In this document: piece by piece, positions 387 to 28,714 of the stretch | Layout of the letters: every line of letters starts with the position of its first letter | Position numbering within the stretch: the stretch's first letter is position 1 | Source: Promethearchaeota archaeon | Lineage (GTDB): Archaea; Asgardarchaeota; Lokiarchaeia; Sigyniarchaeales; SOKP01 | Direction of reading: 5' to 3' | NCBI GenBank assembly: GCA_048941015.1 | Contig: JBHLNZ010000018.1 | Span: 1-48,892 of the forward strand | DNA: 48,892 nucleotides | The notes under the pieces: model-generated | What the model was told of the DNA's origin: nothing | Database searches by the model: none | Seen by the model: the letters and a program-made list of their open reading frames with translations, nothing else | Position numbers and translations under genes: made by a program

Positions 387-1055
387 TTAAAAATCTAATA
401 AAGGAACGTCCCCATTATAGTAAAGCATACTTCCATCGAAACTAATTTGAGCAGTTATTATTGATATGTCCCTTTTTCTTGCCTCTATTAACTTATTTGA
501 AAATTTTGGATCAGTCTTGTAGTTTGGACCAAATTTAAACGAATTTCGGAATATCAGAAAAAGCAGTTTTCCGTTATGGTTAATAATTTCTTGAACATGC
601 CTTGTTCCACGCTCAGTTGGGGCGTCAGGGAATAAAGCAATTCCATTTTTAACGAGAGTAACCCCTTTCACTTCTAATGGTACCCCATCTAAGAGAAAAT
701 CTATTCTACTTTTCCCTATTGATACTTCTTTTTTGATTTCTTTAATTTTTGAAAATTCTGGCAAATATTCAAACAATTTTAATGCGATTTTTGAATGAAG
801 AGAGGTGTCAATTAAAACCCATTCATTATCACATTTTACTGCTTTCACATAATATTTCAGTTTTCCTTTAGATGAAGTAAATAAAATTTCTTTTCCAGGT
901 ATCAATAATTCTTTTAATCGTCCAGGATCGTGTATATGTGCTAATTCATTCATATTTTTATATTTTATTCTACTTACAAATCTATTCGGCCGATCCAAAA
1001 AAATCCCTTTTTTTAATTCAGGGATTTTAAAAATTGGAAATTTAATTGAAGACAT
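387..1055 (-). CDS. sfsA: SfsA-family DNA/RNA nuclease (sugar fermentation stimulation protein)
   Basis: RPNRF, H..DPGRL.ELL.PG, SRIDFLL, EVKGVTL, FPDAPTERG.RH motifs. Confidence 0.93.
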   Translation of the reverse strand: MSSIKFPIFKIPELKKGIFLDRPNRFVSRIKYKNMNELAHIHDPGRLKELLIPGKEILFTSSKGKLKYYVKAVKCDNEWVLIDTSLHSKIALKLFEYLPEFSKIKEIKKEVSIGKSRIDFLLDGVPLEVKGVTLVKNGIALFPDAPTERGTRHVQEIINHNGKLLFLIFRNSFKFGPNYKTDPKFSNKLIEARKRDISIITAQISFDGSMLYYNGDVPLLDF

Positions 1056-1167
1056 AATAATAATTGAGACTCAAAATTTGAGGATAAATATTGTACAAGA
1101 AATTAATATCATTTTATTATTTTCTATAAACTTAATAGATAAAAGTCTTAGCTATTTATTTACAATT

Positions 1168-1407
1168 ATGAGCGACGCTAAAAATGAAACTTGCGTCGAA
1201 AGCTATAAGTTTCATCACATAGATATAAGTAAATGTAAAGAATGTAAGGAATTTTCCTGCGAAGATGCGTGTTTCAGGGGGATTTATGAAGTTATTAATA
1301 AGAATTCTGAACCAAGATGCGTCGTGATTGAAGATCGAGAAGATCGTTGCATTAAATGCCATATTTGTACGACTGCTTGTGCTAAAAAAGCGATATTAAT
1401 TGATTAA
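1168..1407 (+). CDS. 4Fe-4S dicluster ferredoxin-like protein
   Basis: CKECKEFSCEDAC and CIKCHICTTAC clusters; ATG at 1168 preferred over the upstream TTG at 1078. Confidence 0.85.
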   Translation: MSDAKNETCVESYKFHHIDISKCKECKEFSCEDACFRGIYEVINKNSEPRCVVIEDREDRCIKCHICTTACAKKAILID

Positions 1408-1502
1408 TTATCTAAAATTATTCAATAAATCTTAATCAAAGTCTAATTTTTATATTGAAGAAATTATTATTTAATAATAGTATAAAATTATGGGGTTATT
1501 AA

Positions 1503-2042
1503 ATGATCTCTGAAAAATTAAAGTTAGATGATATCGATCGTCAAATAATAAGCTTAGTACAGGAAGATCCAAATCTTACTCATACTCAAATTGCTGAAAA
1601 GATAGATAGAAGCCAACCAACGGTCGGTATGCGTATAAAGAAGCTTGAAAAGGCAGGTGTATTACAATTTCAGCCGGGTATTAACTTCAAGGTTGTAGAT
1701 TTATTCCTGGCTACTGTAGAAATCAATACCAAAAATCCTCAAGAAGTTTTAGATATGGCTTCTTGCTGTCCCTTTATGCTTAACGCGTTTCGTTTAAGTG
1801 GTGGACACAATATATGCATTTTATTAGCAAGTTCTAAATTACAGAAATTAGATGCTATTATTAATTATCACTTTCGCAAAAATCCAGATATAACCGCTGT
1901 ATCCTTGGAAGTTGTTACTGATATAGCTAAGGATTTTATTTTACCCGTAGATTTTGACAGTGAAAACCATGAGCCTAACGAGGAAGAAGGTTGCGGAGAA
2001 AAGTGTAAGTATTTACTAGCTAAAAAGATGGGCAAGTTTTAA
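1503..2042 (+). CDS. Lrp/AsnC family transcriptional regulator
   Basis: LDDIDRQII..L..DP HTH, RAM domain (AFRLSGGHN); C-terminal CGEKC tail. Confidence 0.92.
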   Translation: MISEKLKLDDIDRQIISLVQEDPNLTHTQIAEKIDRSQPTVGMRIKKLEKAGVLQFQPGINFKVVDLFLATVEINTKNPQEVLDMASCCPFMLNAFRLSGGHNICILLASSKLQKLDAIINYHFRKNPDITAVSLEVVTDIAKDFILPVDFDSENHEPNEEEGCGEKCKYLLAKKMGKF

Positions 2043-16934: not shown

Positions 16935-17975
16935 TTAGTTTAAAATTAGCATTTTATCTTTAACTTGATCACTAAGTAATATTCTATAATAGTTTGCTTG
17001 ATTGCGATAGCTTACTTTTTCTAATTTGCCTTCAACTAAAACAAGCTCATCATCTTTAGCTTGCTCACAAAATCTACCTCTAAAGGAATTTATTTCTGTT
17101 ATTTCTCTTATATTAAAATTTTTAAATGTTAAATCGCTTTCTAATAACGTTAAAGGTTCGATTTTGTAAGAACAAGGAGTGAAAATAGAATTACTCGAAT
17201 TAGTTATCTTAGCCTTAATTTTTACCCTTCCTAGATTCTTAAATTGATAATCATAATAAGAACCCTTCCAATCTCTCGGGCTTTTAATATATCTAATAAA
17301 AAAATCTGTATTTAGAAATTTACCTTGATGAAGTTTTCGCTGTTCGCTTTTAAAAAAATCTTCATATTTGATATCTGAACCTCCTACTCTCCAAAGATAA
17401 TGAGAGTGATATTCATTTATATCATATCTTCTGCAAATATTCGATTGTTCTAAAATCTCCTCTAAACTAGTTTGAAAATTCAAACTTGTTTTAGTTCCAT
17501 ATATTATAATATCAATATCTGAATTTATTTTATTTAAGCCAATCATAAGAGAACCTGAAATACCAATTGATTCTTTAGGTATCTTTCCTTTATCTATAAA
17601 TAATTCACATAATTCTTTTGATTCTTTTTCGATATTATTTAAGTTATTTTTTATTTGTAAATTTTTTAAACAATCTCTTGGATGATAAATAATCTTAATA
17701 TCTTTAAGTTCTACTCCTTGAAGTTCTAAATCAAATTGATTTGAATAAAATAAATATTGAGGAAATTTCTCCTTTAAAAGTGAATATCTCTCATTGAAAG
17801 CATAAACCTTTTTATAAGAGAGATTATCTTTTATTCTATCTCCAGTTTTATCGGGATAGAATCTTATAAAACAAATTTTTCGATCTTTTGGATGATGGTA
17901 ACCTTTTACATCAAAAAATAAGTGATTTTCTTTCGTTTCTACGTAATCTCCTTCAATACCTAAAGGAATTTTCAT
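16935..17975 (-). CDS. Predicted nucleotidyltransferase (archaeal pol-beta-like family)
   Basis: GISGS...G....SDIDIIIYG motif; N-terminal F.VKGY.HP, C-terminal OB-like V.GKLE. Confidence 0.75.
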   Translation of the reverse strand: MKIPLGIEGDYVETKENHLFFDVKGYHHPKDRKICFIRFYPDKTGDRIKDNLSYKKVYAFNERYSLLKEKFPQYLFYSNQFDLELQGVELKDIKIIYHPRDCLKNLQIKNNLNNIEKESKELCELFIDKGKIPKESIGISGSLMIGLNKINSDIDIIIYGTKTSLNFQTSLEEILEQSNICRRYDINEYHSHYLWRVGGSDIKYEDFFKSEQRKLHQGKFLNTDFFIRYIKSPRDWKGSYYDYQFKNLGRVKIKAKITNSSNSIFTPCSYKIEPLTLLESDLTFKNFNIREITEINSFRGRFCEQAKDDELVLVEGKLEKVSYRNQANYYRILLSDQVKDKMLILN

Positions 17976-19294: not shown

Positions 19295-19684
19295 TTGGAT
19301 TTTGATGAGGAATTTGATGAGGAATTTGATGAAGATTTGGATGAAGATCTAGATGATGAATTAGATGAACCTACTGTAAAGAGTCCTGAAGAAGAAGTTA
19401 AATCCAAAACTCCTACTATAAAAACACCTGCTAAAGGAAAAAAGATTTCAGTATTCTTTTTATCTACTATTGGGCCTGGTGAGAAAAAACAAAAACTTTT
19501 AGTTTATACTGGAAATAAGATAGGAGATATAAAAGAAACTGTTGCTAATTTATTCGGTCTAGATCCTAGAGATTTTCATTTATCATCTGGCGGAATTACC
19601 ATGGAAGAGGACGCTGCATTAAGTGAATATAATGTAGTTGAGGGAGATGACATTTTACTGATTCCAGCAAGCACTGCTGGTTAA
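19295..19684 (+). CDS. Ubiquitin-like modifier 1 (acidic N-terminal extension; mature C-terminus ...IPASTAG)
   Basis: Beta-grasp pattern: I.DIK..V...FGL.P..F.L...G..M.ED..L.EYNV.EGD.I.L; SD AAGGTGG then TTG. Confidence 0.88.
   Translation: MDFDEEFDEEFDEDLDEDLDDELDEPTVKSPEEEVKSKTPTIKTPAKGKKISVFFLSTIGPGEKKQKLLVYTGNKIGDIKETVANLFGLDPRDFHLSSGGITMEEDAALSEYNVVEGDDILLIPASTAG
19301..19369 (+). repeat. 12-bp coding tandem repeat x6 encoding (F/L)D(E/D)(E/D)
   Basis: tttgatgaggaa x2, tttgatgaagat, ttggatgaagat, ctagatgatgaa, ttagatgaa. Confidence 0.8.
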
Positions 19685-19724
19685 AGATGTTATAACAATT
19701 TAAATGGATATTAACGTTAAATTT

Positions 19725-20519
19725 TTATTTTTTTTCTTTTCTAGAAGGAATTAAAACTATTTCATCATCATCTTCTATGTTATAATCAATAATTTCTAAA
19801 TTTTCATCCAATATTATGCCTCCAGAAGATAACACAAAATTGCTTAGATCATAATTAAATAAAATTGCGATCTTTTCTTTAATTTCAATTACCAATTCAG
19901 AAGTTTCAATAATAATTATTTTTGTTTTTTCACCCGGTTCTATTAATGATCTAATGTAAACTCGGATTTTATCTTGCATTCCAATATTTATTTTAGGTGG
20001 GGTAAAAATGATTTCTTGATCAGTATTATCTTTGTTTCTAAACATATCTTCAATTAATTGATTTCTTTCCTGAGGAGAAAAATATAATAATTCTCTTAAG
20101 AAAAATATTTTATCCATTTTTGAAAGATCTAACAGATTTATTTTATCTAATTCCTCTGGAGTAAAAACTGAAAATATATAGTCATCCATTGTATCTACAT
20201 CTTCAAACAATTCATTTGAATTCGCGTATTTATCTATTAAAGGCATTGCATCAAAATAATCCTCAATAAATTCATTTGATTGTTTTTTTAGTGATTTCTG
20301 CTTTGAAATATATTTAGGTTTTATGATTCTTTTATCTGGAATAGATCTAGATTGTATTATTGTATAAATGGTACCAGTAGATAATACTGCCATACTGCTA
20401 ATATTAAAAATAACATAAAATGGAAGAGAGTCTATTTTTAAGAAGAAGAGAATAATGTAGATTAAGATGAAAATGAAGTAAAGAGCGATTAAGCTAAAGA
20501 ATCTATAGTTTCTTCTCAT
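19725..20519 (-). CDS. Membrane-anchored protein with C-terminal ubiquitin-like domain lacking a terminal Gly
   Basis: Two N-terminal TM helices; last about 80 aa align with the two Ubls (S.I.PGEK, EIKE.I..LF, F.LSSGG, DYNI.D.DEI.LIP); ends SRKEKK. Confidence 0.85.
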   Translation of the reverse strand: MRRNYRFFSLIALYFIFILIYIILFFLKIDSLPFYVIFNISSMAVLSTGTIYTIIQSRSIPDKRIIKPKYISKQKSLKKQSNEFIEDYFDAMPLIDKYANSNELFEDVDTMDDYIFSVFTPEELDKINLLDLSKMDKIFFLRELLYFSPQERNQLIEDMFRNKDNTDQEIIFTPPKINIGMQDKIRVYIRSLIEPGEKTKIIIIETSELVIEIKEKIAILFNYDLSNFVLSSGGIILDENLEIIDYNIEDDDEIVLIPSRKEKK

Positions 20520-20601
20520 GGTTATTATTCAATTTTTTTCTAATTTTCTAATGTGTCTTTTAAAATATAAATTCAATTGGAATAAATTTGAAATTTAAAT
20601 C

Positions 20602-21273
20602 TTATCTATTAATCATTGATTTGATTAAATTTTGATATCTATCTAAATCTAACATAAATATTGTTTTTTTATTTTCCTTTTCGGTTTTTACTATTTTTAA
20701 ATCACTTAAAATATTAAGGTATTTTTTAATTGTGTTATAGTTCTTTTTTAATTGAGTTGCTATATCTGTTAATTTTAATTTTTTATTTTCTCTTTTCATA
20801 AACTCAATTATTTGTTTTGTAATATCTTGATTTAAGTAATAATAAAGTTCATCAAATTCTGGATTTGATTCAAAATGAAAAATTATTCGTTGATTTTCAA
20901 TTTTTCTTGACCTAGTAAATTGAAATTTTTCCAAGCATGAAAGATGCCAGAGAGCTTGATTGCTTCCAATATTTATCGCTCTCATGATTTCATTAATATT
21001 GGATGGATTCTTCTTGATATAATTATAAATTTCATTTCTTATTGGATGCTCAATAATGTTATTTCTCATTAATTTCGTTCCTGGAATTAATATTCGTTTT
21101 TTAATTAGTTTTTTAATGATTTTCTCAATCATATTCCTATTTAAATAAGGATAACCTCTTGCCCTATTACTAATAAAACTTATAATATCTTCTAGTGAAA
21201 AGAAGGGCTTCTTTTTTAAGTATTCCTTAACTAATTCAAAAACGACAGAATCAACTTTATCAGGAGAACTCAT
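20602..21273 (-). CDS. Multi-winged-helix transcriptional regulator
   Basis: R.EIY.YIK.NP..INEI.RA...G.....WHL..L and TDIA..L...YNTI.KYL..L wHTH segments. Confidence 0.8.
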   Translation of the reverse strand: MSSPDKVDSVVFELVKEYLKKKPFFSLEDIISFISNRARGYPYLNRNMIEKIIKKLIKKRILIPGTKLMRNNIIEHPIRNEIYNYIKKNPSNINEIMRAINIGSNQALWHLSCLEKFQFTRSRKIENQRIIFHFESNPEFDELYYYLNQDITKQIIEFMKRENKKLKLTDIATQLKKNYNTIKKYLNILSDLKIVKTEKENKKTIFMLDLDRYQNLIKSMINR

Positions 21274-21516
21274 AATTTATTTCTTTGATTTTATTGAGAA
21301 ATTTACACTTTACATCCAAATCTTCTCTCTAAAACGATATTTTCTACCTTATATATATTATTAGATGTTCATTTAATTTATAGATATATCTTAGTAAAAT
21401 TCGAATAGAATTAAATTAGCTTTTAAAAATTTCAAATTCATTCCAAAGGGTTTTATAATACTATATTTTCATGTTTTTAATAAAAAAAAAACACATAAAA
21501 GAAAGAAGTGATTTGA

Positions 21517-21852
21517 ATGAGTTTTAAAGAAAATTTTGATGAGGAATTAGAACCTGTCAAATCTAAAACACCAATATCTAAAACTCCTGCAGCAGGAAGA
21601 AAATTAACTTTATATTTCATGTCTACCATAGGGCCTGGTGAAAAAAAGGAAAAGTTAATCGTAAATGACGCTAACTATGTAAGAGATATAAAGCAAACCT
21701 TAGGAAATTTATTTGGACTTGATCCTGATGAGTTTCATTTATCATCTGGTGGAGTGACTATGGATGAAGATAATCAATTGAGAGATTACAATGTAAATGA
21801 CGGCGACGATATTCTTTTGATTCCTGCCAGTACTGCGGGTAAACTTATATAA
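21517..21852 (+). CDS. Ubiquitin-like modifier 2 (pro-form, ...IPASTAG-KLI)
   Basis: Paralog of 19295..19684; L.DYNV.DGD.I.L ubiquitin-like signature; first gene of the E1-E2-JAMM-RING run. Confidence 0.9.
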   Translation: MSFKENFDEELEPVKSKTPISKTPAAGRKLTLYFMSTIGPGEKKEKLIVNDANYVRDIKQTLGNLFGLDPDEFHLSSGGVTMDEDNQLRDYNVNDGDDILLIPASTAGKLI

Positions 21853-21875
21853 ATATTCTTCATAAATTATAATAT

Positions 21876-21912
21876 AAAGGCTTTAAGCCTTTCATTTTTT
21901 TTATTTTTTTAT
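21876..21912 (+). terminator. Hairpin AAAGGCT-TTA-AGCCTTT followed by T-tract between Ubl2 and E1
   Basis: Perfect inverted repeat 21876-21892 then catttttttttatttttt-type run. Confidence 0.45.
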
Positions 21913-21932
21913 TAATATGGATAGTGATAATA

Positions 21933-23156
21933 ATGGATAAAAATTCAGATTTTTTTGCAAAAGAATTGTCTATCGAAGAGAGAAACTTATATGATCGGCA
22001 GTTCCGTCTCGAGGGGTGGTCACAAAAATTAGTAAAGAACTCAAGAATATTAATTATTGGCATTGGAGGATTAGGGTGCGAAATTGCTAAAAATCTAGCT
22101 ATGTTAGGTTTGGGCCACTTGGATCTTGTTGATTTAGATATTATTGAGCATTCTAATTTAAACCGTCAAATTCTTTTCACGGGGGCTAAGATAGGAGCAC
22201 CTAAAGCTGTTGTAGCAGCTAAAAAATTATCAGAAATAAATCCTAATATTGTTGTTAAAGGATATCACACTTCACTTGAGCGGTTAGACCCTGCAATATA
22301 TCAAAATGCAGACGTTATTATCGGGGGTCTTGACTCAATGAATGCACGATTAAACTTAAATACTCAATGTATACGATTTAGAAAACCATTAGTAGATGGA
22401 GGGGTATCTGGTTATCATGGTCATATATATACGATCTTTCCTTATGAAAATGCTTGCTATGAATGTAATCCCTTACCTGAAGTAGAAAGCGATGAAATGG
22501 CAGCATGTACTGTGGTTGGAATACCACGGAAACGGATTCATTGTGTTTTTAAAGGAGATATGGCATTTAGAGAAAAATTTGATAGAGATCCAAATCCAAA
22601 AGATATAAACGATATAGAATTTATTCAAAAGTTTGCAAATGATTTGGTAAATAAACATAATTTTTTACCGGAATATACCGCAGATGATATAGTGAAAATC
22701 CTTGATAGACACGATCCTGGGATAATTACTATAAATGCAGTTATTTCTGCTCTACAATCACATGAGGCTATAAAAATTCTCCATTGGAATAAGGGACATA
22801 AAGGATTAGGAGAACCAATAAAAAGTTATGTAATTTTTAATGCAATGACAATGAAATTCTATCATATTGAAAAACCGAGAAATCCAGATTGTTCTCAATG
22901 TGGTAAAAAAGTTCGAAGAGTAGCTATAAAAATGAGATCTCAATCACCCTGTATAAATATAATTAAGATATTGGAGAAAAATGGATTTAAATTAGAACCT
23001 GATTTTGAACCTGTTATAACTTTGCTAGATTTCAATGAGATTAAAGTAATTGATTTAGAAAAAACTCCAATTAATAATGGTTTAAGAAATTACGAATTTT
23101 TAACCGTTGCAGGATTTATGGGTGGAGAAATTTATGTAACTTTAAAATTAAAATAA
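21933..23156 (+). CDS. Ubiquitin-like activating enzyme E1 (ThiF domain plus catalytic-Cys domain plus UFD-like tail; UBA2/UBA3-like)
   Basis: YDRQ, GIGGLGCE, D.D.IE.SNLNRQ.LF, LDS..AR, CYEC, catalytic AACT...PR...HC, NAVI, CSQC. ATG 21933 or GTG 21924. Confidence 0.93.
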   Translation: MDKNSDFFAKELSIEERNLYDRQFRLEGWSQKLVKNSRILIIGIGGLGCEIAKNLAMLGLGHLDLVDLDIIEHSNLNRQILFTGAKIGAPKAVVAAKKLSEINPNIVVKGYHTSLERLDPAIYQNADVIIGGLDSMNARLNLNTQCIRFRKPLVDGGVSGYHGHIYTIFPYENACYECNPLPEVESDEMAACTVVGIPRKRIHCVFKGDMAFREKFDRDPNPKDINDIEFIQKFANDLVNKHNFLPEYTADDIVKILDRHDPGIITINAVISALQSHEAIKILHWNKGHKGLGEPIKSYVIFNAMTMKFYHIEKPRNPDCSQCGKKVRRVAIKMRSQSPCINIIKILEKNGFKLEPDFEPVITLLDFNEIKVIDLEKTPINNGLRNYEFLTVAGFMGGEIYVTLKLK

Positions 23157-23258
23157 CTTTTAAATCAAAAAATGTTTTTAATAAAATTTGATGAAATAGG
23201 CATTTATAAAAGAGAAAATTTTTAATATTAAATTAAAGAATAAAAAAGTGTTTAGAAA

Positions 23259-23786
23259 ATGAGTATAAGAAGTAGTCGGGTATCCCGTGATTTTGCGGGA
23301 CTAAAAAAAATGCTTAAAGAAGGGAGTCTTGTTCAGTTAATACCATTTAATCCTAAAAACAAAAGTATTGATCACTTAGCGTTAACAATTAAAGGCCCTA
23401 AAGGTACTGCTTATTCAGGTGGACTTTTTAAATTAGAAATGAAGTTCCCTACTCAATATCCGAAGCAACCACCTTTTGTAAGAATGCATACTCCTATTTG
23501 GCACCCCAACTTTTGGCCAAAACCGAGTGAATATAAAGGTCAAAGAAATATTTGCCTAGCATTAATAGATCCATCTTTAATTGGACAAAAAGGTGGATGG
23601 AGCCCATCAAAAACTGCTGTAACAGTTGTTCAGGCAATAATTGCTATGTTAAACACTCGAGGTAAATTTGTAAATCCAACAGATGTTTTTAATAAAAAGG
23701 CAGCCATGGAAATGATGAAAAACCCTAAGTTTTTTGAGAGAAAAGTTAAAAATTTAGTTAAAAAGTATGCTAAAAGTAAGTGGTGA
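23259..23786 (+). CDS. Ubiquitin-conjugating enzyme E2 (UBC fold)
   Basis: I.GP.GT.Y.GG.F.L...FP..YP..PP.V...TPIWHPN...ICL, W.P; catalytic Cys codon at 23553. Confidence 0.95.
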   Translation: MSIRSSRVSRDFAGLKKMLKEGSLVQLIPFNPKNKSIDHLALTIKGPKGTAYSGGLFKLEMKFPTQYPKQPPFVRMHTPIWHPNFWPKPSEYKGQRNICLALIDPSLIGQKGGWSPSKTAVTVVQAIIAMLNTRGKFVNPTDVFNKKAAMEMMKNPKFFERKVKNLVKKYAKSKW

Positions 23787-23794
23787 AATTTAAA

Positions 23795-24613
23795 ATGGGA
23801 GAGTTAAATAAACATAGAGCATCTATTAAAGAAGAAATAAAGACAAAAATTAAGGAAATAATCAAGAAAGAATTGTTAGAAGAAATCTATGAAGAATTAA
23901 AGTTAGAAGAAAAAGAACTAGTTAATGAAATTAGTACTATGATTACAAAAAGGGTACCTGAAATGCAAACAATAAAACATTCAAATAATCAAGCTCCCAT
24001 AGAAGCCACAATAAAAAAAGAGCAACTAAAAGTAATTCCTATAGATAATATTGAAAAAGAAGTATACATTTCAGTTAAAGCGATTTTAAAGGTCGCTAGT
24101 CATGCACTAAAATATGCTAATTCAAAGGTTCCAAGAAATAATTGGGTAGAAGTTATAGGTTTACTTGCAGGTAAATTAGATAATAAAAATGGAGTCTTAC
24201 ATATCGAGGATTACTATCCTATGGGGCATGGAACGGCTGTTTATGCTGAAATAAAAGATTATAAAAATTATGCCAGGGCATTTAGAGATATTAAAAGAGA
24301 GAAATTATTTATATGTGGTTGGGCACATAGTCATCCTTCTTATGGTTGTTTTATGAGTAATGAGGATATTGGGACTCAATCGAGGTATCAAACTCTCTGG
24401 GATAAAGCTGTTGCACTAGTTATTGATCCTTACCTTATTGATGGAACATCTGCAGGTTTTGAAATCTATCGTGCAGATCTGAAAACAAGAACCTGGTACC
24501 CTTTAGTATATGGTATTAAAGGATCTTTAGATATAAGAATGTTGCCTGAAATCTTAGAATTTATGAATCCTATAATTCAAGGGAAACCAGCTTATTTAGA
24601 ATATGATGAATAG
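23795..24613 (+). CDS. JAMM/MPN+ metalloisopeptidase (Rpn11/CSN5-like) with N-terminal helical extension
   Basis: VYIS..A.LK...HA, EVIGLL.G, GW.HSHP.YG.F.S..D..TQ, A.VIDP. ATG 23795 follows SD GGTGA overlapping the E2 stop. Confidence 0.93.
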   Translation: MGELNKHRASIKEEIKTKIKEIIKKELLEEIYEELKLEEKELVNEISTMITKRVPEMQTIKHSNNQAPIEATIKKEQLKVIPIDNIEKEVYISVKAILKVASHALKYANSKVPRNNWVEVIGLLAGKLDNKNGVLHIEDYYPMGHGTAVYAEIKDYKNYARAFRDIKREKLFICGWAHSHPSYGCFMSNEDIGTQSRYQTLWDKAVALVIDPYLIDGTSAGFEIYRADLKTRTWYPLVYGIKGSLDIRMLPEILEFMNPIIQGKPAYLEYDE

Positions 24614-24645
24614 TAAATTAAAATATATTTGGTGATAATGAAACT

Positions 24646-25779
24646 GTGGCTAAAAAGAAGGTTTTAGCAATAATTTTCATTCTTTTTTTAATAATTGGTA
24701 TAATACACGGTGCAATTATCTCAACTTCATTAAATATTTTTTTAACTTGGCCACTTATCGGTCTATGGATCATCTTTACACTTAAGATTTTAGAAAATGT
24801 AAAAAGGCATCGAGAATTTAATTCTCCACACAACACTGCTTTTTTTGTTATGATTCCTTTATTTATCGGAATTTTTTATTCTATTTGGGGTTATTTTACA
24901 GGAATATTAGGTGAGAATCTGATTGAAGGTTCAAATTTATATTTCAGTTGGTGGAGTATTATTTTCGGATTTCCATTTGTACTTTATGGATCTTTTTCAT
25001 TATATCGTTGTTTTAAGAAATATAATGTAATCTATTTTGGAACTAAATCAGTAAAAGCTAAAGCAGTAGGATACGTTTTAAGTTTCATTATTATTCTTTT
25101 TATTGTGATATACTGGATAGCATTTTATGCATTTATGGAGTTTTATAATTCTCCGTTAATCCCATTTCACTTCTCTTTAGATCTTAATCTTTTACTGGTT
25201 TTAATTATGACAATCTTAATACTAATTGTTTTTGGATTTATTAACTCACAAAGATCGTTACCATCGTTAACTCGTGATTATATTACCCAACGATCAAGAA
25301 GATTAAACGCATTAACATCTGCATCCACACTTAATTCTCCAAATAGACAAAATAGGTCAGCCAGACCGAGCCGATCATCTAGAACAACTACGCGTACCAC
25401 CATAAGAGCAACACCAAATATACTTAGGCGAACAACTAAAACTAAAACAAGAGTGACTACTCAGACTAAAAGTATAAAAGTTCGAGACTTTACAAAATAT
25501 AGACCGAAAGCATCATATTTATCTGTAGAAGATTTTAAGTGCATTTTCTGTTTTAAGTTGCCAAAACTACCAGAAGATCGAGGAAGAGGGATAGTTATAT
25601 GCCCAAACTGTAGATATCCTGCACATGCAGATGAATTCAAAGATTGGATGAGAACGTCAAATCTTTGTTCAAGATGCAGTGCTCCTATTTCATCTAACTA
25701 TAGAAGAAATCCTAAAATAATTAGTGTAAAGGATTATTTAGTTATTTGTTCGCATTTTGTAAAGAAAAAGAATCAGTAA
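24646..25779 (+). CDS. Polytopic membrane protein with C-terminal RING-like finger, putative E3 ligase
   Basis: Six hydrophobic segments, R/S/T-rich linker, C-x2-C-x16-C-x2-C-x4-H-x2-E-x3-W-x6-C-x2-C (25540-25677); operonic with E1/E2/JAMM. Confidence 0.8.
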   Translation: MAKKKVLAIIFILFLIIGIIHGAIISTSLNIFLTWPLIGLWIIFTLKILENVKRHREFNSPHNTAFFVMIPLFIGIFYSIWGYFTGILGENLIEGSNLYFSWWSIIFGFPFVLYGSFSLYRCFKKYNVIYFGTKSVKAKAVGYVLSFIIILFIVIYWIAFYAFMEFYNSPLIPFHFSLDLNLLLVLIMTILILIVFGFINSQRSLPSLTRDYITQRSRRLNALTSASTLNSPNRQNRSARPSRSSRTTTRTTIRATPNILRRTTKTKTRVTTQTKSIKVRDFTKYRPKASYLSVEDFKCIFCFKLPKLPEDRGRGIVICPNCRYPAHADEFKDWMRTSNLCSRCSAPISSNYRRNPKIISVKDYLVICSHFVKKKNQ

Positions 25780-25805: not shown

Positions 25806-26765
25806 TTATTTTGGTACTTTAATAATCTTTCTTAATTCTCCTATGGTAGTACTTAATTCTGAATAAACATTATGAGGGTGAATTGATTCAAAACTTTCTA
25901 TTTTGAATTTGATTTTAAAATTATCTTCTAAATTTGGAAATTCCTTTAAAATAAAATTTTTCGCCATTTCTCTTATTACGTCTTCAGCGAATAATGGTTT
26001 TAAATGAGCAATTCTAACTAACTTTGCTTCTTCAGGCCTTTTTAAGACAGATTGCATTCTTCCGCTCATACTTTCTTCGATAATATCAATGATATCTAAA
26101 ACATCTATTTTGTAGTTATTTAGATCCTTAATTTGAACCATAATTGAACCTGTAGATCTTTGATTGTGAGAACTAAATGGTAAAATATTTAGAAGTTTTT
26201 TTACTATCTCATTGGAAAGATTGATATCTTGCCTATTTTTTATAATTTCTTCAGCATATTCTTGACTCATTTCCTTTGCACATGGGCAGACAGTCATTCC
26301 AATCGCATTTGCTCCAATATAGTAATTAAAATTAATAATTCCAGATTCTTGCTTTTTTGCCTTTACAAGAGAACTAATATCGTATGCTTTTTGAATCATC
26401 CTTTGTTGGGAATCTTTAGCTTGAACTATTATTTTTCCTTCTAATTTTACATGTACCTTTTCTGTATAAGGATGCTTTTCCAATAATTTTCTTGCAATTC
26501 TGTCACCAACAACTTCAACTGATGGAGTGGGTGTAAAAATAACTTCATTAATAATCTCCTCAATTGTTTCTGAAGTACGAGACATATGAATCCCCCTTTG
26601 TCTAGCAGGCAGTGAAATTAAGGCTGATATTTTCGGATAAAAAGAATATCTCTTATTTTCTTGAATAATCTCTACTTTCTTTTCTACACCAACTATTCCA
26701 ACTTTATCTATCGGAATGTCTACAATCGAACCAGAATCTTGTAAGTCTTTTTTGAATTGATTAAT
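25806..26765 (-). CDS. mptA: GTP cyclohydrolase MptA (FolE2 family)
   Basis: Frame extends upstream of the track ATG through DLQD...I.IDKVGI.GV...L...RGIHMSR; T.CPC, SHNQR, LKRPEE, F.ED, ESIHPH. The only available start is ATT at 26765. Confidence 0.9.
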   Translation of the reverse strand: MNQFKKDLQDSGSIVDIPIDKVGIVGVEKKVEIIQENKRYSFYPKISALISLPARQRGIHMSRTSETIEEIINEVIFTPTPSVEVVGDRIARKLLEKHPYTEKVHVKLEGKIIVQAKDSQQRMIQKAYDISSLVKAKKQESGIINFNYYIGANAIGMTVCPCAKEMSQEYAEEIIKNRQDINLSNEIVKKLLNILPFSSHNQRSTGSIMVQIKDLNNYKIDVLDIIDIIEESMSGRMQSVLKRPEEAKLVRIAHLKPLFAEDVIREMAKNFILKEFPNLEDNFKIKFKIESFESIHPHNVYSELSTTIGELRKIIKVPK

Positions 26766-26871
26766 TTATTACCACCGACTAAATTGCTTTTAATTTAAAA
26801 GATGTACCAAATTTAATAATATATATTCAATTATATTATTTTTTGAATTATTAAAAAAAATCGATTAATTT

Positions 26872-28041
26872 ATGTTTAGTAAACAAATTGATAGCGATTA
26901 TGGTCTTATTGGAGATAATCTGGAAATAAAAAAGAATATAAAAATAGAAATAAGTAAAAATGGAAAGATTAACAAAATATCTTATGAGAATATAGATAAA
27001 TCTGTTATTATTTCTAAAAGTAGACCTACTTATTTGCTAATTCCTGGGTTAATAAATTCTCATATTCATATAGGTGATAGTTTTGCAAAAGAAGAAGGTT
27101 TTAATAACAATTTAATTGATATTGTTGCTCCTCCAAATGGATTAAAACATAGGTTGTTGAAATCAACCTCTGAAGAAAATATAATTGAAGGGATATATAA
27201 GGCATCAAGGGAAATGATCTCAAGTGGTACTACTTTTTTTATGGATTTTCGAGAAAATGAGTTAGATGGAATAAATCTATTGAGAAATGCATTAAAGGGA
27301 TCTTCTATAAATTATCTTGTATTAGGTAGGTTTAATGATATAAGGGATTTAGAAGGAGTATATAATGCCGCTGATGGTATTGGTTTTGCAAGTTATAAAT
27401 ATTTATCTCCAAATGTTAAAGAACAACTAAAAGAATTAAAAAGTGTAAAGAAGAAAATATTTGCTTGCCATGATGCTGAAAATATTAGAGATAAGAATGT
27501 AATTGAGAAAATTTTAAATGATAAAATAATTGATGTCATAGTTCATGGCACTAAATATATTGAAGAAGATTTAATTGAAATTAAAAAGAACAAAATTGCA
27601 TTAGTAATTTGTCCCAGAAGCAATGGCTATTTTGGGATTGGATTTCCTCCGATCAATGAAATTTTAAGTTTAAATCTTCCTATAAGCATAGGTACGGATA
27701 ATGTTATGGCAAATAATCTGGACTTATTCGAAGAGTTACGTTACATTTATCGTATTTATCGGGTTTTAAGACAAGATTCGAATGCACCATTAATTACAGC
27801 AAAAGATTTACTTAAGATGATAACTATTAATGCTGCTAAGAATTTTGGCTTAGAAAGTGAAATTGGATCGATATCAGAAGAAAAGTTTGCAGATTTTTTC
27901 ATGATTGATTTGAATGATCCTAACCTTTATCTACATAAAGTTGATAAAGAGAATATTTATCCAATTATCGTTCAAAGAACAAAATCAGAAAATATAAAAA
28001 AGGTATATATAAGAGGTGACTTAATCTTTGAAAGGATCTGA
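26872..28041 (+). CDS. Metal-dependent amidohydrolase/deaminase (cytosine/guanine deaminase-like)
   Basis: PGLINSHIH, H.AE, VHG, CPRSN, GTDN, M.TIN.A, GS....K.AD motifs. Confidence 0.88.
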   Translation: MFSKQIDSDYGLIGDNLEIKKNIKIEISKNGKINKISYENIDKSVIISKSRPTYLLIPGLINSHIHIGDSFAKEEGFNNNLIDIVAPPNGLKHRLLKSTSEENIIEGIYKASREMISSGTTFFMDFRENELDGINLLRNALKGSSINYLVLGRFNDIRDLEGVYNAADGIGFASYKYLSPNVKEQLKELKSVKKKIFACHDAENIRDKNVIEKILNDKIIDVIVHGTKYIEEDLIEIKKNKIALVICPRSNGYFGIGFPPINEILSLNLPISIGTDNVMANNLDLFEELRYIYRIYRVLRQDSNAPLITAKDLLKMITINAAKNFGLESEIGSISEEKFADFFMIDLNDPNLYLHKVDKENIYPIIVQRTKSENIKKVYIRGDLIFERI

Positions 28042-28714
28042 AAAGCCATACATAATATTAAGCGCTGCGATGAGTATTGATGGAAAAATAGCTTCGAAGG
28101 ATGGAGATCCTGATTTATCAGATGAAGATGATTGGAAAGAAGTTCATAAACTAAGAAGTCAAGTAGATGCAATAATTGTTGGTAAGCAAACTATCATAAG
28201 AGATAATCCTAAACTTCACATTAAATATTATGACCATAAAGGCTATTATCGTATTGTTTTAGATAGTAATTTATCAATTCCATTGGATTCTAATGTTATT
28301 TCGTACAAACAAGATGTATATCCAACAATAATTTGTACAACAGAAAATATATCTTTGGAGAAAATTAAAAAGTTTGAATCAAAAAGTATTAAGGTAGTAA
28401 AATCTGGAGAAGGAAAAAGAGTAGATCTTCTAAAATTAATGCCATTATTGTCTAATCAAGGGATAAAATCCATATTATTAGAAGGTGGTGGAAATTTAAA
28501 TTGGAGTTTCATTAAAAATGATTTAATTGATGAAATTCGATTAACTATTGCTCCATGGATAGTAGGCGGGAAAGAAGCTATATCTTTAGTTGAAGGAGAA
28601 GGATTTTCAAAGATGATCGAGAGTCCAAGATTTATTTTGACCAATATCATAAATAGAAATAATTATGTAATTCTAAATTACAAAAAAAAATATAATGAAA
28701 AGTACAATACTTAA
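28028..28714 (+). CDS. arfC: 2,5-diamino-6-(ribosylamino)-4(3H)-pyrimidinone 5'-phosphate reductase (RibD C-domain only)
   Basis: AAMSIDGKIA, VH.LR...DAI.VG..T...DNP.L, LEGGG.LN, DEI...IAP...GG. Confidence 0.9.
   Translation: MKGSEKPYIILSAAMSIDGKIASKDGDPDLSDEDDWKEVHKLRSQVDAIIVGKQTIIRDNPKLHIKYYDHKGYYRIVLDSNLSIPLDSNVISYKQDVYPTIICTTENISLEKIKKFESKSIKVVKSGEGKRVDLLKLMPLLSNQGIKSILLEGGGNLNWSFIKNDLIDEIRLTIAPWIVGGKEAISLVEGEGFSKMIESPRFILTNIINRNNYVILNYKKKYNEKYNT

Follow-up and report, generated by a model that had tools for sequence, protein, structure and literature searches.

The ubiquitin-conjugation cascade of the archaeon Caldiarchaeum subterraneum, which has been reconstituted, consists of a ubiquitin ending in Gly-Gly (GG), an activating enzyme (E1), a conjugating enzyme (E2) and a small soluble RING finger protein (srfp), with an Rpn11-like JAMM protease encoded adjacently (PMC5654768). 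Clusters of E1 and E2 genes have been catalogued in Asgard archaea, Lokiarchaeum included, by the same authors, according to whom small RING finger proteins were the only ones identified in archaea (PMC5654768). A reconstituted Asgard system linked to the ESCRT complexes of endosomal sorting uses a GG pro-ubiquitin, an E1, an E2 and a soluble RING protein acting on UEV (ubiquitin E2 variant)-Vps23 (bioRxiv 10.1101/2023.07.25.550441; PMC9192718). Soluble RING proteins are thus what the archaeal systems studied so far use (PMC5654768; bioRxiv 10.1101/2023.07.25.550441). In this study, we analysed a 48,892-nt stretch of DNA (the window) from a Promethearchaeota archaeon (GenBank assembly GCA_048941015.1, contig JBHLNZ010000018.1), which is contig C29 of a 3.59-Mb, 95% complete Asgard genome bin of the Lokiarchaeia type. 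The window carries a cassette encoding ubiquitin-like modifiers (Ubls), an E1, an E2, a JAMM protease and a protein with six transmembrane (TM) helices and a C-terminal RING-type finger (TM-RING). The cassette is a real, new variant of the archaeal E1/E2/RING system. It is probably an Asgard operon, inherited vertically, that encodes a second conjugation pathway of the ubiquitin family, which is separate from the GG-ubiquitin systems found in this genome and is assisted by a RING domain at the membrane.

All eight open reading frames (ORFs) that an earlier note on this DNA had placed in the cassette are present (Table 1), and the domain matches, together with the intact motifs around the catalytic Cys of E1, the catalytic Cys of E2 and the metal site of JAMM, bear out its description of a complete Ubl/E1/E2/JAMM/RING cassette. 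Ubl2, E1, E2, JAMM and TM-RING follow one another on the forward strand with intergenic gaps of 71, 102, -7 and 32 nt, the negative value being the overlap of the end of the E2 gene by the JAMM gene. In the E1, a catalytic-Cys domain (Cys195) is inserted into a single adenylation domain, and the C-terminus is extended by ~80 aa that resemble a ubiquitin-fold domain. The enzyme contains GIGGLG at residues 46-51, the catalytic-Cys context AACT at 193-196 and a CxxC...CxxC zinc site (CYEC, 178-181; CSQC, 323-326), and Cys195 was aligned with the catalytic Cys (GCTIRN) of SAE2. Its nearest solved relatives were SAE2 (UBA2; 1.6e-38), UBA1 (6e-38) and UBA3 (4e-35), and the matches with UBA5 (~1e-15) and ATG7 (1e-8) were both far weaker than those with SAE2 and UBA1. 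Judged by its sequence, the E1 has both the adenylation and the catalytic-Cys domains of the E1s of ubiquitylation cascades.

The E2 has a UBC fold with YPKQPP, HPN (82-84) and WSP motifs and a single Cys, which occupies the catalytic position (Cys99). The 14-residue spacer between HPN and this Cys, FWPKPSEYKGQRNI, is longer than in the aligned relatives of known structure, and its pattern F-W-P-K-P-x-E-Y-x-G-[KQ]-R-N-I was invariant across both locus architectures described below, distant loci included. The protein is strongly basic (32 Lys and Arg versus 9 Asp and Glu). The best matches in the PDB were Ubc15, Cdc34/UBE2R, UBE2T, Ubc13, UBE2F and Ubc9 (1e-15 to 1e-11); no single eukaryotic orthologue stood out in this search, and the E2 is best described as a generic UBC protein. 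The JAMM protein is Rpn11/CSN5-like with a charged N-terminal extension of ~90 aa. Its metal site is intact, with EVIG at 124-127 and H-S-H-x7-S-x2-D (HSHPSYGCFMSNED) at 183-196, and its best PDB match was the Rpn11-like protein of Caldiarchaeum (6fjv, 7e-15), followed by eukaryotic Rpn11 and CSN5.

Two free modifiers are encoded in the cassette. Ubl1 consists of an acidic N-terminal tail, the motif V-K-S-K-T-P-T-I-K-T-P, a beta-grasp domain and a mature STAG end; its TTG start is backed by orthologues that open with the same acidic tail. The tail of Ubl2 carries V-K-S-K-T-P-I-S-K-T-P, and since its STAG is followed by K-L-I, three residues need to be removed. Every free Ubl examined had an S-[TIV]-A-G end, at which the chain stopped or after which it continued for 1-5 residues. 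A C-terminal Gly-Gly was absent from all of them, the terminal Gly being preceded by Ala, so that the non-GG modifier pointed out in the earlier note proved to be a feature of the whole family. Neither Lys nor Arg is found among the last 20 residues of the Ubl, so that a tryptic remnant would be long. Pfam ubiquitin (PF00240) matched 18 of 18 aligned free Ubls (best, 3e-8). A profile built from these 18 sequences, which came from near and distant loci, retrieved from the PDB ubiquitin, the Caldiarchaeum Ubl (6fnn, 6fj7, 2mqj), ubiquilin/Dsk2 domains, ISG15 and FAT10, and neither UFM1 nor Atg8 was among the matches listed. Pfam Ufm1 (PF03671) matched none of the 18 Ubls and nothing in the whole genome. 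A reading of the Ubls as sulfur carriers of the ThiS/MoaD kind was ruled out by the accompanying E2, RING and JAMM.

In a distant locus, one complete Ubl unit is joined head to tail to another; both have a K-T-P tail and end in STAG, and the first STAG runs straight into the tail of the second unit. This poly-Ubl precursor is reminiscent of polyubiquitin genes. By analogy with the Caldiarchaeum pro-ubiquitin, which is processed by Rpn11 (PMC5654768), the C-terminal extensions and the di-Ubl would fit with cleavage after Gly by JAMM. A third Ubl domain is found in a membrane protein (TM-Ubl), in which about two hydrophobic helices at the N-terminus (~7-27 and 33-55) are followed by a helical stretch and, at the C-terminus, by the Ubl domain, whose identity to Ubl1 and Ubl2 is 41-42%. 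This protein ends in ..I-P-S-R-K-E-K-K, and all its orthologues end in ..IPSRK..; since a terminal Gly is lacking, the domain is predicted not to be activated or conjugated.

The structure of TM-RING was predicted by AlphaFold with an alignment of 89 diverse members (mean predicted local distance difference test score (pLDDT), 87), a model that superseded a poor one obtained with 22 close homologues (pLDDT 57). The model has three parts, namely six TM helices (residues 2-25, 29-57, 65-81, 102-124, 138-163 and 180-199), a disordered linker rich in Arg, Ser and Thr, and a compact C-terminal domain (290-377). The conserved cytosolic loops of the TM domain contain ..REFNSPHNTAFF.. and ..RCFKKYNVIYFG.., and the charges of the loops obey the positive-inside rule for a topology with both termini inside. 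The RING finger is therefore predicted to be cytosolic, from the six-helix model and the loop charges together. The linker (200-285) contains 16 Arg, 18 Thr and 12 Ser, and its length and composition differ among relatives.

The finger follows the pattern C-x2-C-x16-C-x2-C-x4-H-x2-E-x3-W-x6-C-x2-C, with C299/C302, C319/C322, H327, E330, W334 and C341/C344. In the 89 family members, whose identity goes down to ~20%, the first four Cys were invariant, and H327, E330, W334, C341 and C344 were each kept in 88. A hydrophobic residue (Phe, Ile, Leu or Val) is kept two positions after the first Cys and a Trp four residues after ligand 6, which are positions of the E2-contact type. The RING proteins of the same genome that lie at or near the Pfam zf-RING_2 cut-off (on contigs C124, C15 and C101) show C-x2-C-x12-13-C-x2-C-x4-H-x2-[C/H]-x3-W-x6-C-x2-C; the spacing of TM-RING equals that of these ordinary RINGs except for the x16 first loop and the Glu at ligand 6.

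When the finger was compared with the PDB by Foldseek, the best rows were essentially all RING or U-box domains of ubiquitin ligases (E3s), including the RINGs of HRD1 (6f98), Rad18, Ring1b/Bmi1, Arkadia, TRIM32, RNF8 and RNF4 and the U-boxes of CHIP and LubX, and many of these structures had been solved together with an E2. The E-values were weak (0.03-1), as expected since the domain is small. VIA-align agreed with Foldseek both when all representatives were searched and when it was used for a second look; its matches included the E3 U-box 3lrq (Z 7.8; root-mean-square deviation (rmsd) 4.2 A over 76 aa), the RING of Ring1b (2ckl; Z 7.0, 3.4 A, 70 aa), the RING of RNF4 (4ap4; Z 6.0, 2.6 A, 68 aa) and the U-box of Prp19 (2bay; Z 6.0, 2.2 A, 59 aa). 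In the Pfam scan, the protein of the window gave only sub-threshold RING matches (zf-RING_16, 0.19; Prok-RING_1, 0.65), scoring against Prok-RING_1 10.4 bits in the protein scan and 15.1 bits in a six-frame genome search (cut-off, 29.1). Weak matches were obtained in many members of the family with zf-RING_2 (best, 9.9e-6), Prok-RING_1 (best, 8.4e-5; 46 of 89) and zf-RING_16. When the PDB was searched with the finger or with the whole family, by single sequence or by profile, no significant RING match was found; the rows obtained were weak ones for an IFT144/WDR19 zinc domain and RNF24 and low-complexity matches with membrane proteins. The earlier note had read the last gene as a polytopic membrane protein with a cytosolic RING-fold domain, and AlphaFold, Foldseek, VIA-align and the ligand spacing all agree with that reading. 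On the basis of the model, we conclude that the finger is a predicted RING-fold domain of C4HC3 order with a fixed Cys-to-Glu change.

The earlier note had named conserved synteny of the RING gene as a point on which its proposal should be judged. The TM-RING family comprised 402 clusters at 90% identity and 121 at 50%, and a pattern scan found it in 127 species genomes. A profile search of 400 genomes of the phylum gave full-length matches in 117 of the 134 genomes that belong to the same family as the window and in several additional Asgard families, others showing only weak finger-level matches. In the searches done, the family was confined to Asgard archaea wherever the source was named, bar one contig. 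That contig (locus L060, DATKTW010000176.1) is labelled 'Candidatus Nanopelagicaceae bacterium', carries this Asgard cassette (Ubl-E1-E2-JAMM-TM-RING) with an 81% identical E1 and is probably mis-binned. Close relatives, with proteins 57-84% identical, are likewise labelled variously by NCBI (Hod-, Hermod-, Odin- and Thorarchaeota).

Eighty loci around TM-RING homologues were fetched to compare gene order. Nearly every locus reaching far enough showed the same twelve genes, namely those for the nucleotidyltransferase, coiled-coil protein, Ubl1, TM-Ubl, winged helix-turn-helix (wHTH) regulator, Ubl2, E1, E2, JAMM, TM-RING, MptA and amidohydrolase. Across the 80 loci, the identity was 74-93% for E2 and 67-90% for E1, and in ~70 species the cassette occupied a fixed chromosomal place beside the cofactor-biosynthesis genes. 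Distant contigs, in which TM-RING is 20-30% identical, again had Ubl(s)-E1-E2-JAMM-TM-RING; one distant locus had E2-JAMM-TM-RING with Ubl-E1 a few genes off. The order Ubl-E1-E2-JAMM-TM-RING was thus kept from 97% down to ~20-30% identity of TM-RING in more than 100 Asgard species genomes. Since the same order recurs in nearly all 80 loci and in distant relatives, the arrangement is far beyond chance, and the RING gene is syntenic. A closed 6.04-Mb genome of the same taxonomic order apparently has the coiled-coil gene and Ubl-E1-E2-JAMM-TM-RING as well. Two genes past TM-RING, it encodes a polytopic 371-aa protein with a C-terminal C-x2-C...C-x2-C zinc ribbon. In another genome of this order, a single contig of 4.4 Mb (G135), the match with the TM-RING profile was weak (2e-11), and some members of the order may therefore lack the cassette.

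Two architectures were distinguished. Window-type loci have TM-Ubl, a double wHTH regulator, which is syntenic among them, and the coiled-coil protein. In the second architecture, found in distant loci, a RING-less paralogue of the TM domain (~195 aa) lies near TM-RING in place of TM-Ubl, accompanied by a Lys/Pro-rich protein in which I-K-x-K-T-P recurs and by a small protein whose two repeats resemble ribbon-helix-helix domains. Besides keeping the ..RCF-x-[KR]-Y.. loop, the paralogue shows 26% identity over 139 aa; it was lacking from the 80 window-type loci, and TM-Ubl was not seen in the divergent loci examined. These two proteins may be alternative membrane partners of the system.

The genome encodes further conjugation genes. 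One contig carries a JAB protein, a 303-aa E1 and a 187-aa E2-like protein, with a Ubl on the opposite strand ending in ..VIGG-FF; another encodes a ubiquitin-like protein ending in ..QAGG. Besides these, a solitary E2 that is 40% identical to the E2 of the cassette and a 587-aa frame with an E2/UEV match were found. Since a GG-FF cassette and an AGG Ubl exist elsewhere in the genome, the cassette of the window is an additional, separate pathway and not the only ubiquitin system of the organism. At least six further RING proteins are also encoded. Two of them, of ~375 aa, apparently have an N-terminal domain resembling von Willebrand factor A followed by RING fingers, one has 195 aa and a single TM segment, and four share the spacing C-x2-C...C-x2-C-x4-H-x2-[C/H]-x3-W-x6(12)-C-x2-C.

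The earlier note had begun the cassette at Ubl1, a boundary that now seems too narrow. The divergently oriented gene next to Ubl1 encodes a coiled-coil protein with I-R-E-K-T-P near its N-terminus and ..H-K-I-K-T-K-T-P-S-K-Y at its C-terminus. Its orthologues start with ..I-[RQ]-E-K-T-P.. and finish with ..I-K-[ST]-K-T-P-S-K-Y, the K-[ST]-P motif being found at the N-terminus in 46 and at the C-terminus in 45 of 48. The gene adjoins a Ubl gene in nearly all 80 loci, including the two most divergent ones, and in the closed 6.04-Mb genome, whose coiled-coil protein contains the K-T-P motif in multiplied form. A similar motif is found in nearly all free Ubls, in which an acidic N-terminal tail is followed by [IV]-K-S-K-T-P-x2-3-K-T-P or a close variant, and in Lys/Pro-rich proteins of the second architecture. 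Genome-wide, [IVL]KxKTP occurred in four ORFs of at least 80 aa and in Ubl1, three of the five being in the cassette, with the count based on a simple ORF call and shuffled ORFs giving 1-6 genome-wide. Since both its position and the shared K-T-P motif are conserved, the coiled-coil protein appears to belong to the cassette. It is a candidate substrate or scaffold of the pathway, and the motif is a candidate recognition, docking or acceptor site and the best lead to such a site.

Taken together, these observations lead to the following proposal, in which the enzymology rests on homology and the location on topology. JAMM would trim the precursors after S-T-A-G, removing K-L-I from Ubl2 and cutting the poly-Ubl of relatives. 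The single-subunit E1 with its Cys domain would adenylate the terminal Gly and form a thioester, from which the Ubl would be handed on to the catalytic Cys99 of the E2, a UBC-type enzyme. The cytosolic RING-fold domain would bind the charged E2 on the inner side of the membrane and promote transfer to Lys residues of nearby targets, which may be membrane proteins, and JAMM may also remove the modification. TM-RING is likely the ligase of this pathway. TM-Ubl might serve as an accessory partner that offers a recruiting or regulatory surface, its position being comparable to that taken by the HERP/Usa1 Ubl domain within Hrd1 complexes. The first candidates for partners or targets would be the coiled-coil protein and the other proteins with the K-T-P motif.

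Several observations weigh against this proposal. TM-RING of the window has no Pfam or NCBIfam match, and the Z values of the fold matches of the finger (5.4-7.8) are moderate for a small domain. Only seven of the eight zinc ligands are Cys or His, position 6 being Glu in 88 of 89 members. Active RINGs usually have an Arg or Lys linchpin right after the last Cys; in TM-RING this residue is Ser, Asn or Asp, and the basic linchpin is missing. The TM domain had no specific relative by Foldseek, whole-library VIA-align or ESM Atlas, the best results being unspecific helical matches (Z up to 8.3; Atlas TM-scores below 0.5), and no match with the TM domain of Hrd1 was listed by Foldseek or VIA-align; therefore, neither an Hrd1-like nor a new fold is claimed. 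The Glu and the non-basic linchpin position would agree with TM-RING being not a ligase but a membrane receptor, anchor or substrate, whose finger binds the Ubl or the E2 without catalysis while the E2 transfers the modifier directly. Weak matches with Pfam zf_UBZ in 27 of 89 members (best, 0.031) point in the same direction, and the long linker with its Lys, Arg, Ser and Thr residues could be a site of modification. We consider this unlikely, however, since the folds matched are those of catalytic RINGs and U-boxes, many of whose structures include an E2, the Trp and the hydrophobic residue of the E2 contact are conserved, the spacing equals that of the genome's standard RINGs, and the TM-RING gene always lies directly after those for E2 and JAMM.

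A different question is what the pathway modifies. With the same enzymology, conjugation could be directed by the K-T-P motif to a few targets, such as the coiled-coil protein or the Lys/Pro-rich neighbour and the Ubl's own tail, giving a membrane scaffold decorated with Ubls in a manner likened to Atg12-Atg5-Atg16 or to chains on SUMO2/3 tails; only the targets and the purpose would differ from the membrane-tagging pathway proposed above. The motif does stand in the N-terminal tail of free Ubls possessing one. It is found at the two ends of the coiled-coil protein in 45-46 of 48 orthologues, and it is repeated in the Lys/Pro-rich gene that the second architecture has after TM-RING as well as in the closed genome's coiled-coil protein; genome-wide, it is almost limited to the cassette, and the conserved insertion beside the catalytic Cys of E2 could read it. 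The motif may instead bind the TM loops, JAMM or TM-Ubl or be a phosphorylation site, however, and its count is based on a simple ORF call, so that motif-directed conjugation has a small though appreciable chance of being correct. A similarly modest chance is given to a system in which E2 and the Glu-containing RING put the STAG modifier on motif lysines and thereby build chains and a Ubl-linked coiled-coil lattice at the inner membrane face. If true, this would be an Asgard invention for organising or remodelling membranes, not for degradation, with a logic like that of Atg12-Atg5-Atg16 or polySUMO scaffolds.

Attachment of the single-Gly Ubl to the head group of an amino-lipid, with TM-RING placing the charged E2 on the bilayer, is suggested by the single Gly exposed by a protease, as in Atg8, and by a sole E3-like component that is integral to the membrane. 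This is very improbable, as the E1 matched ATG7 at only 1e-8 compared with 1e-38 for UBA2 and UBA1, the E2 is a standard HPN-containing UBC protein and not Atg3/Atg10-like, and the Ubl profile matched ubiquitin-type domains, Atg8 not being among the matches listed. Bacterial operons of E1, E2 and JAB proteins serve in defence (PMC10557695), and the adenylation domain of the E1 weakly matched the E1-E2 models of PADLOC for CBASS (cyclic oligonucleotide-based antiphage signalling system; 1e-16), which would suit an antiviral module of the kind of bacterial Bil or of Cap2-Cap3 in CBASS. Such a role is extremely unlikely, since the PADLOC matches are limited to this domain, E2, JAMM, the Ubls and TM-RING matching no model, and since the fixed chromosomal place and the 80-90% identity of the enzymes across species are the opposite of patchy, fast-evolving islands. 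The membrane-associated conjugation pathway proposed above remains the probable reading.

The features of the locus and the related genes mentioned above are collected in Table 1. The G+C content along the window is 24-33%. Upstream of the coiled-coil gene lies a gene for a 346-aa protein with a nucleotidyltransferase motif of the pol-beta type, which is kept in window-type loci and not in the most divergent ones. The genes that follow the cassette encode an MptA-type GTP cyclohydrolase (folE2 family, 1.1e-43), an amidohydrolase and a RibD-C-like reductase; they are syntenic in most relatives and form a cofactor-biosynthesis context that is apparently unrelated to the Ubl system.

Table 1. Location of the cassette genes, their neighbours and related genes. 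Positions without a prefix refer to the window; C, contigs of the same genome; L, loci of relatives.
Feature	Position	Strand	Remarks
Nucleotidyltransferase-motif protein	16935-17975	-	
Coiled-coil protein, 367 aa	17996-19099	-	divergent from Ubl1; only generic coiled-coil matches in Pfam
Ubl1, free modifier, 129 aa	19295-19684	+	Pfam ubiquitin, 24.7 bits; ends ..P-A-S-T-A-G, then stop
TM-Ubl, 264 aa	19725-20519	-	Pfam ubiquitin, 31.1 bits (residues 195-257); ends ..PSRKEKK
Double wHTH regulator	20602-21273	-	Pfam HTH_5 (ArsR-type); NCBIfam ArsR/SmtB and SdpR, two stretches
Ubl2, free modifier precursor, 111 aa	21517-21852	+	Pfam ubiquitin, 26.8 bits; ends ..P-A-S-T-A-G-K-L-I
E1	21924-23156	+	ThiF, 2.7e-60
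E2	23259-23786	+	UQ_con, 6.3e-26
JAMM/MPN+ metalloprotease	23780-24613	+	JAB, 2.2e-13
TM-RING, whole gene, 377 aa	24646-25779	+	
TM-RING, membrane domain	24646-25245	+	AlphaFold pLDDT >90
TM-RING, disordered R/S/T-rich linker (residues ~200-285)	25246-25500	+	pLDDT <50
TM-RING, cytosolic RING-fold finger, helix-flanked	25501-25779	+	pLDDT ~96; candidate E3 domain
MptA-type cyclohydrolase, amidohydrolase, reductase	25806-28714		
RING-less TM paralogue	L101:5884-6462		directly after TM-RING
RING-less TM paralogue	L104:10259-10846		directly after TM-RING
RING-less TM paralogue	L099:1456-2052		directly after TM-RING
RING-less TM paralogue	L098:4861-5334		directly after TM-RING
RING-less TM paralogue	L102:8948-9526	-	opposite strand, few genes from TM-RING
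Di-Ubl	L104:3330-4019		
Lys/Pro-rich protein with motif	L104:11039-11719		second architecture
Lys/Pro-rich protein with motif	L102:8292-8942		second architecture
Coiled-coil protein of closed genome	L118:12326-13561		
Polytopic zinc-ribbon protein of closed genome	L118:4674-5789	-	
JAB, E1, E2-like and GG-FF Ubl genes	C50:106314-108620		Ubl on opposite strand
Ubiquitin-like protein, ..QAGG	C126:235-486		
Solitary E2	C90:3369-3878		
Frame with E2/UEV match	C7:12563-15254		
Further RING protein	C122:~67000-68300	-	
Further RING protein	C105:~600-1700	-	
Further RING protein	C124:18484-18621		
Further RING protein	C15:50238-50378		
Further RING protein	C118:45359-45490		
Further RING protein	C101:14129-14269		

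Ubiquitin-type tagging at membranes, as in endoplasmic-reticulum (ER)-associated degradation (ERAD), endocytic sorting, UFMylation at the ER and Atg8 lipidation, is regarded as a hallmark of the way eukaryotic cells are organised. At the present locus, a membrane-integral RING shares an operon with a modifier, an E1, an E2 and a protease of its own, and this arrangement is conserved in a large part of the Asgard archaea. This suggests that ubiquitin-type tagging at membranes is older than eukaryotes, and the cassette would make it directly testable whether membrane-associated Ubl conjugation predates them; it thus bears on the origin of eukaryotic membrane-associated ubiquitin signalling. As a compact system of five proteins, the cassette also lends itself to reconstitution; it includes a natural RING in which Glu replaces a zinc-binding Cys, and the shared K-T-P motif provides a concrete first hypothesis on substrate recognition.

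The distinction that the earlier note drew between this locus and the published archaeal systems with a GG ubiquitin and a small soluble RING is upheld (PMC5654768; bioRxiv 10.1101/2023.07.25.550441), and our literature searches found neither a characterised orthologue nor a description of an Asgard membrane RING or of this cassette variant. The Caldiarchaeum system and the cassette have in common a modifier of the ubiquitin family that is produced as a precursor, an E1 containing a catalytic-Cys domain and a C-terminal extension, a UBC-type E2, a RING and a related JAMM. In Caldiarchaeum, the modifier ends in Gly-Gly and the RING, a small soluble protein, has Cys at every ligand position. In the cassette, the modifier ends in Ala-Gly and the RING is joined to six TM helices and has Glu as ligand 6; two genes encode modifiers, and there are in addition a Ubl domain anchored in the membrane and a coiled-coil partner bearing the motif. 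The ESCRT-linked system belongs to the same phylum and shares the enzyme classes and the precursors with a short C-terminal extension. Its genes are clustered with ESCRT genes and its soluble RING has an N-terminal substrate loop, whereas in the window no ESCRT genes adjoin the cassette, which possesses an E1, an E2, a JAMM and a membrane RING of its own.

Prokaryotic RING fingers in Ub/E1/E2/JAB neighbourhoods were reportedly described by Burroughs, Iyer and Aravind in 2011, and the corresponding Pfam family is said to be Prok-RING_1 (PF14446). According to the Pfam entry, bacterial members of this family carry TM helices. Prokaryotic RINGs have been described as C4HC3 (PMC11354881). TM-RING is like Prok-RING_1 in its C4HC3-type ligand order and its Ubl/E1/E2/JAB neighbours, and unlike its members in that the six-TM domain forms a separate family, which in the searches made was limited to Asgard archaea.

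The UFM1 pathway resembles the cassette in having a single-Gly modifier exposed by a protease and a membrane-anchored ligase machinery, and the ..IP-x4-G ending of the Ubls appears similar to the end of UFM1. The analogy with UFMylation drawn in the earlier note fails on the type of the enzymes, however. The UFM1 pathway uses UBA5, UFC1, which lacks HPN, UFL1-DDRGK1 and the Cys protease UFSP, whereas in the cassette the E1 is near UBA2/UBA1/UBA3, the E2 keeps HPN, the protease is a JAMM protein and Pfam Ufm1 is unmatched. From structures, a survey of 2026 reports homologues of Ufm1 in nine clades of Asgard archaea (PMC12962969). A single-Gly modifier is shared by the two pathways, and the enzymes that would act on it are of different kinds.

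In eukaryotes, the polytopic ligases Hrd1 and gp78 act in ERAD, for which the Ubl-domain membrane protein HERP/Usa1 is a partner, and MARCH proteins are ligases of the RING-CH type. The comparison with eukaryotic polytopic RING ligases draws in part on PMC4021871. TM-RING differs from Hrd1 and MARCH in that its TM domain has no detected similarity to solved membrane ligases, Glu occupies ligand position 6 and the modifier differs from ubiquitin proper. The analogy with ERAD put forward in the earlier note is one of architecture; the TM domain gave no match with Hrd1 or any other specific relative. As in Hrd1, gp78 and MARCH, a cytosolic RING bearing the H-x2-[C]-x3-W signature comes after several TM helices; as in RING-CH proteins, the ligands are in C4HC3-type order; and as with HERP/Usa1 in Hrd1 complexes, a separate membrane protein carries a Ubl domain that is predicted to be non-conjugatable.

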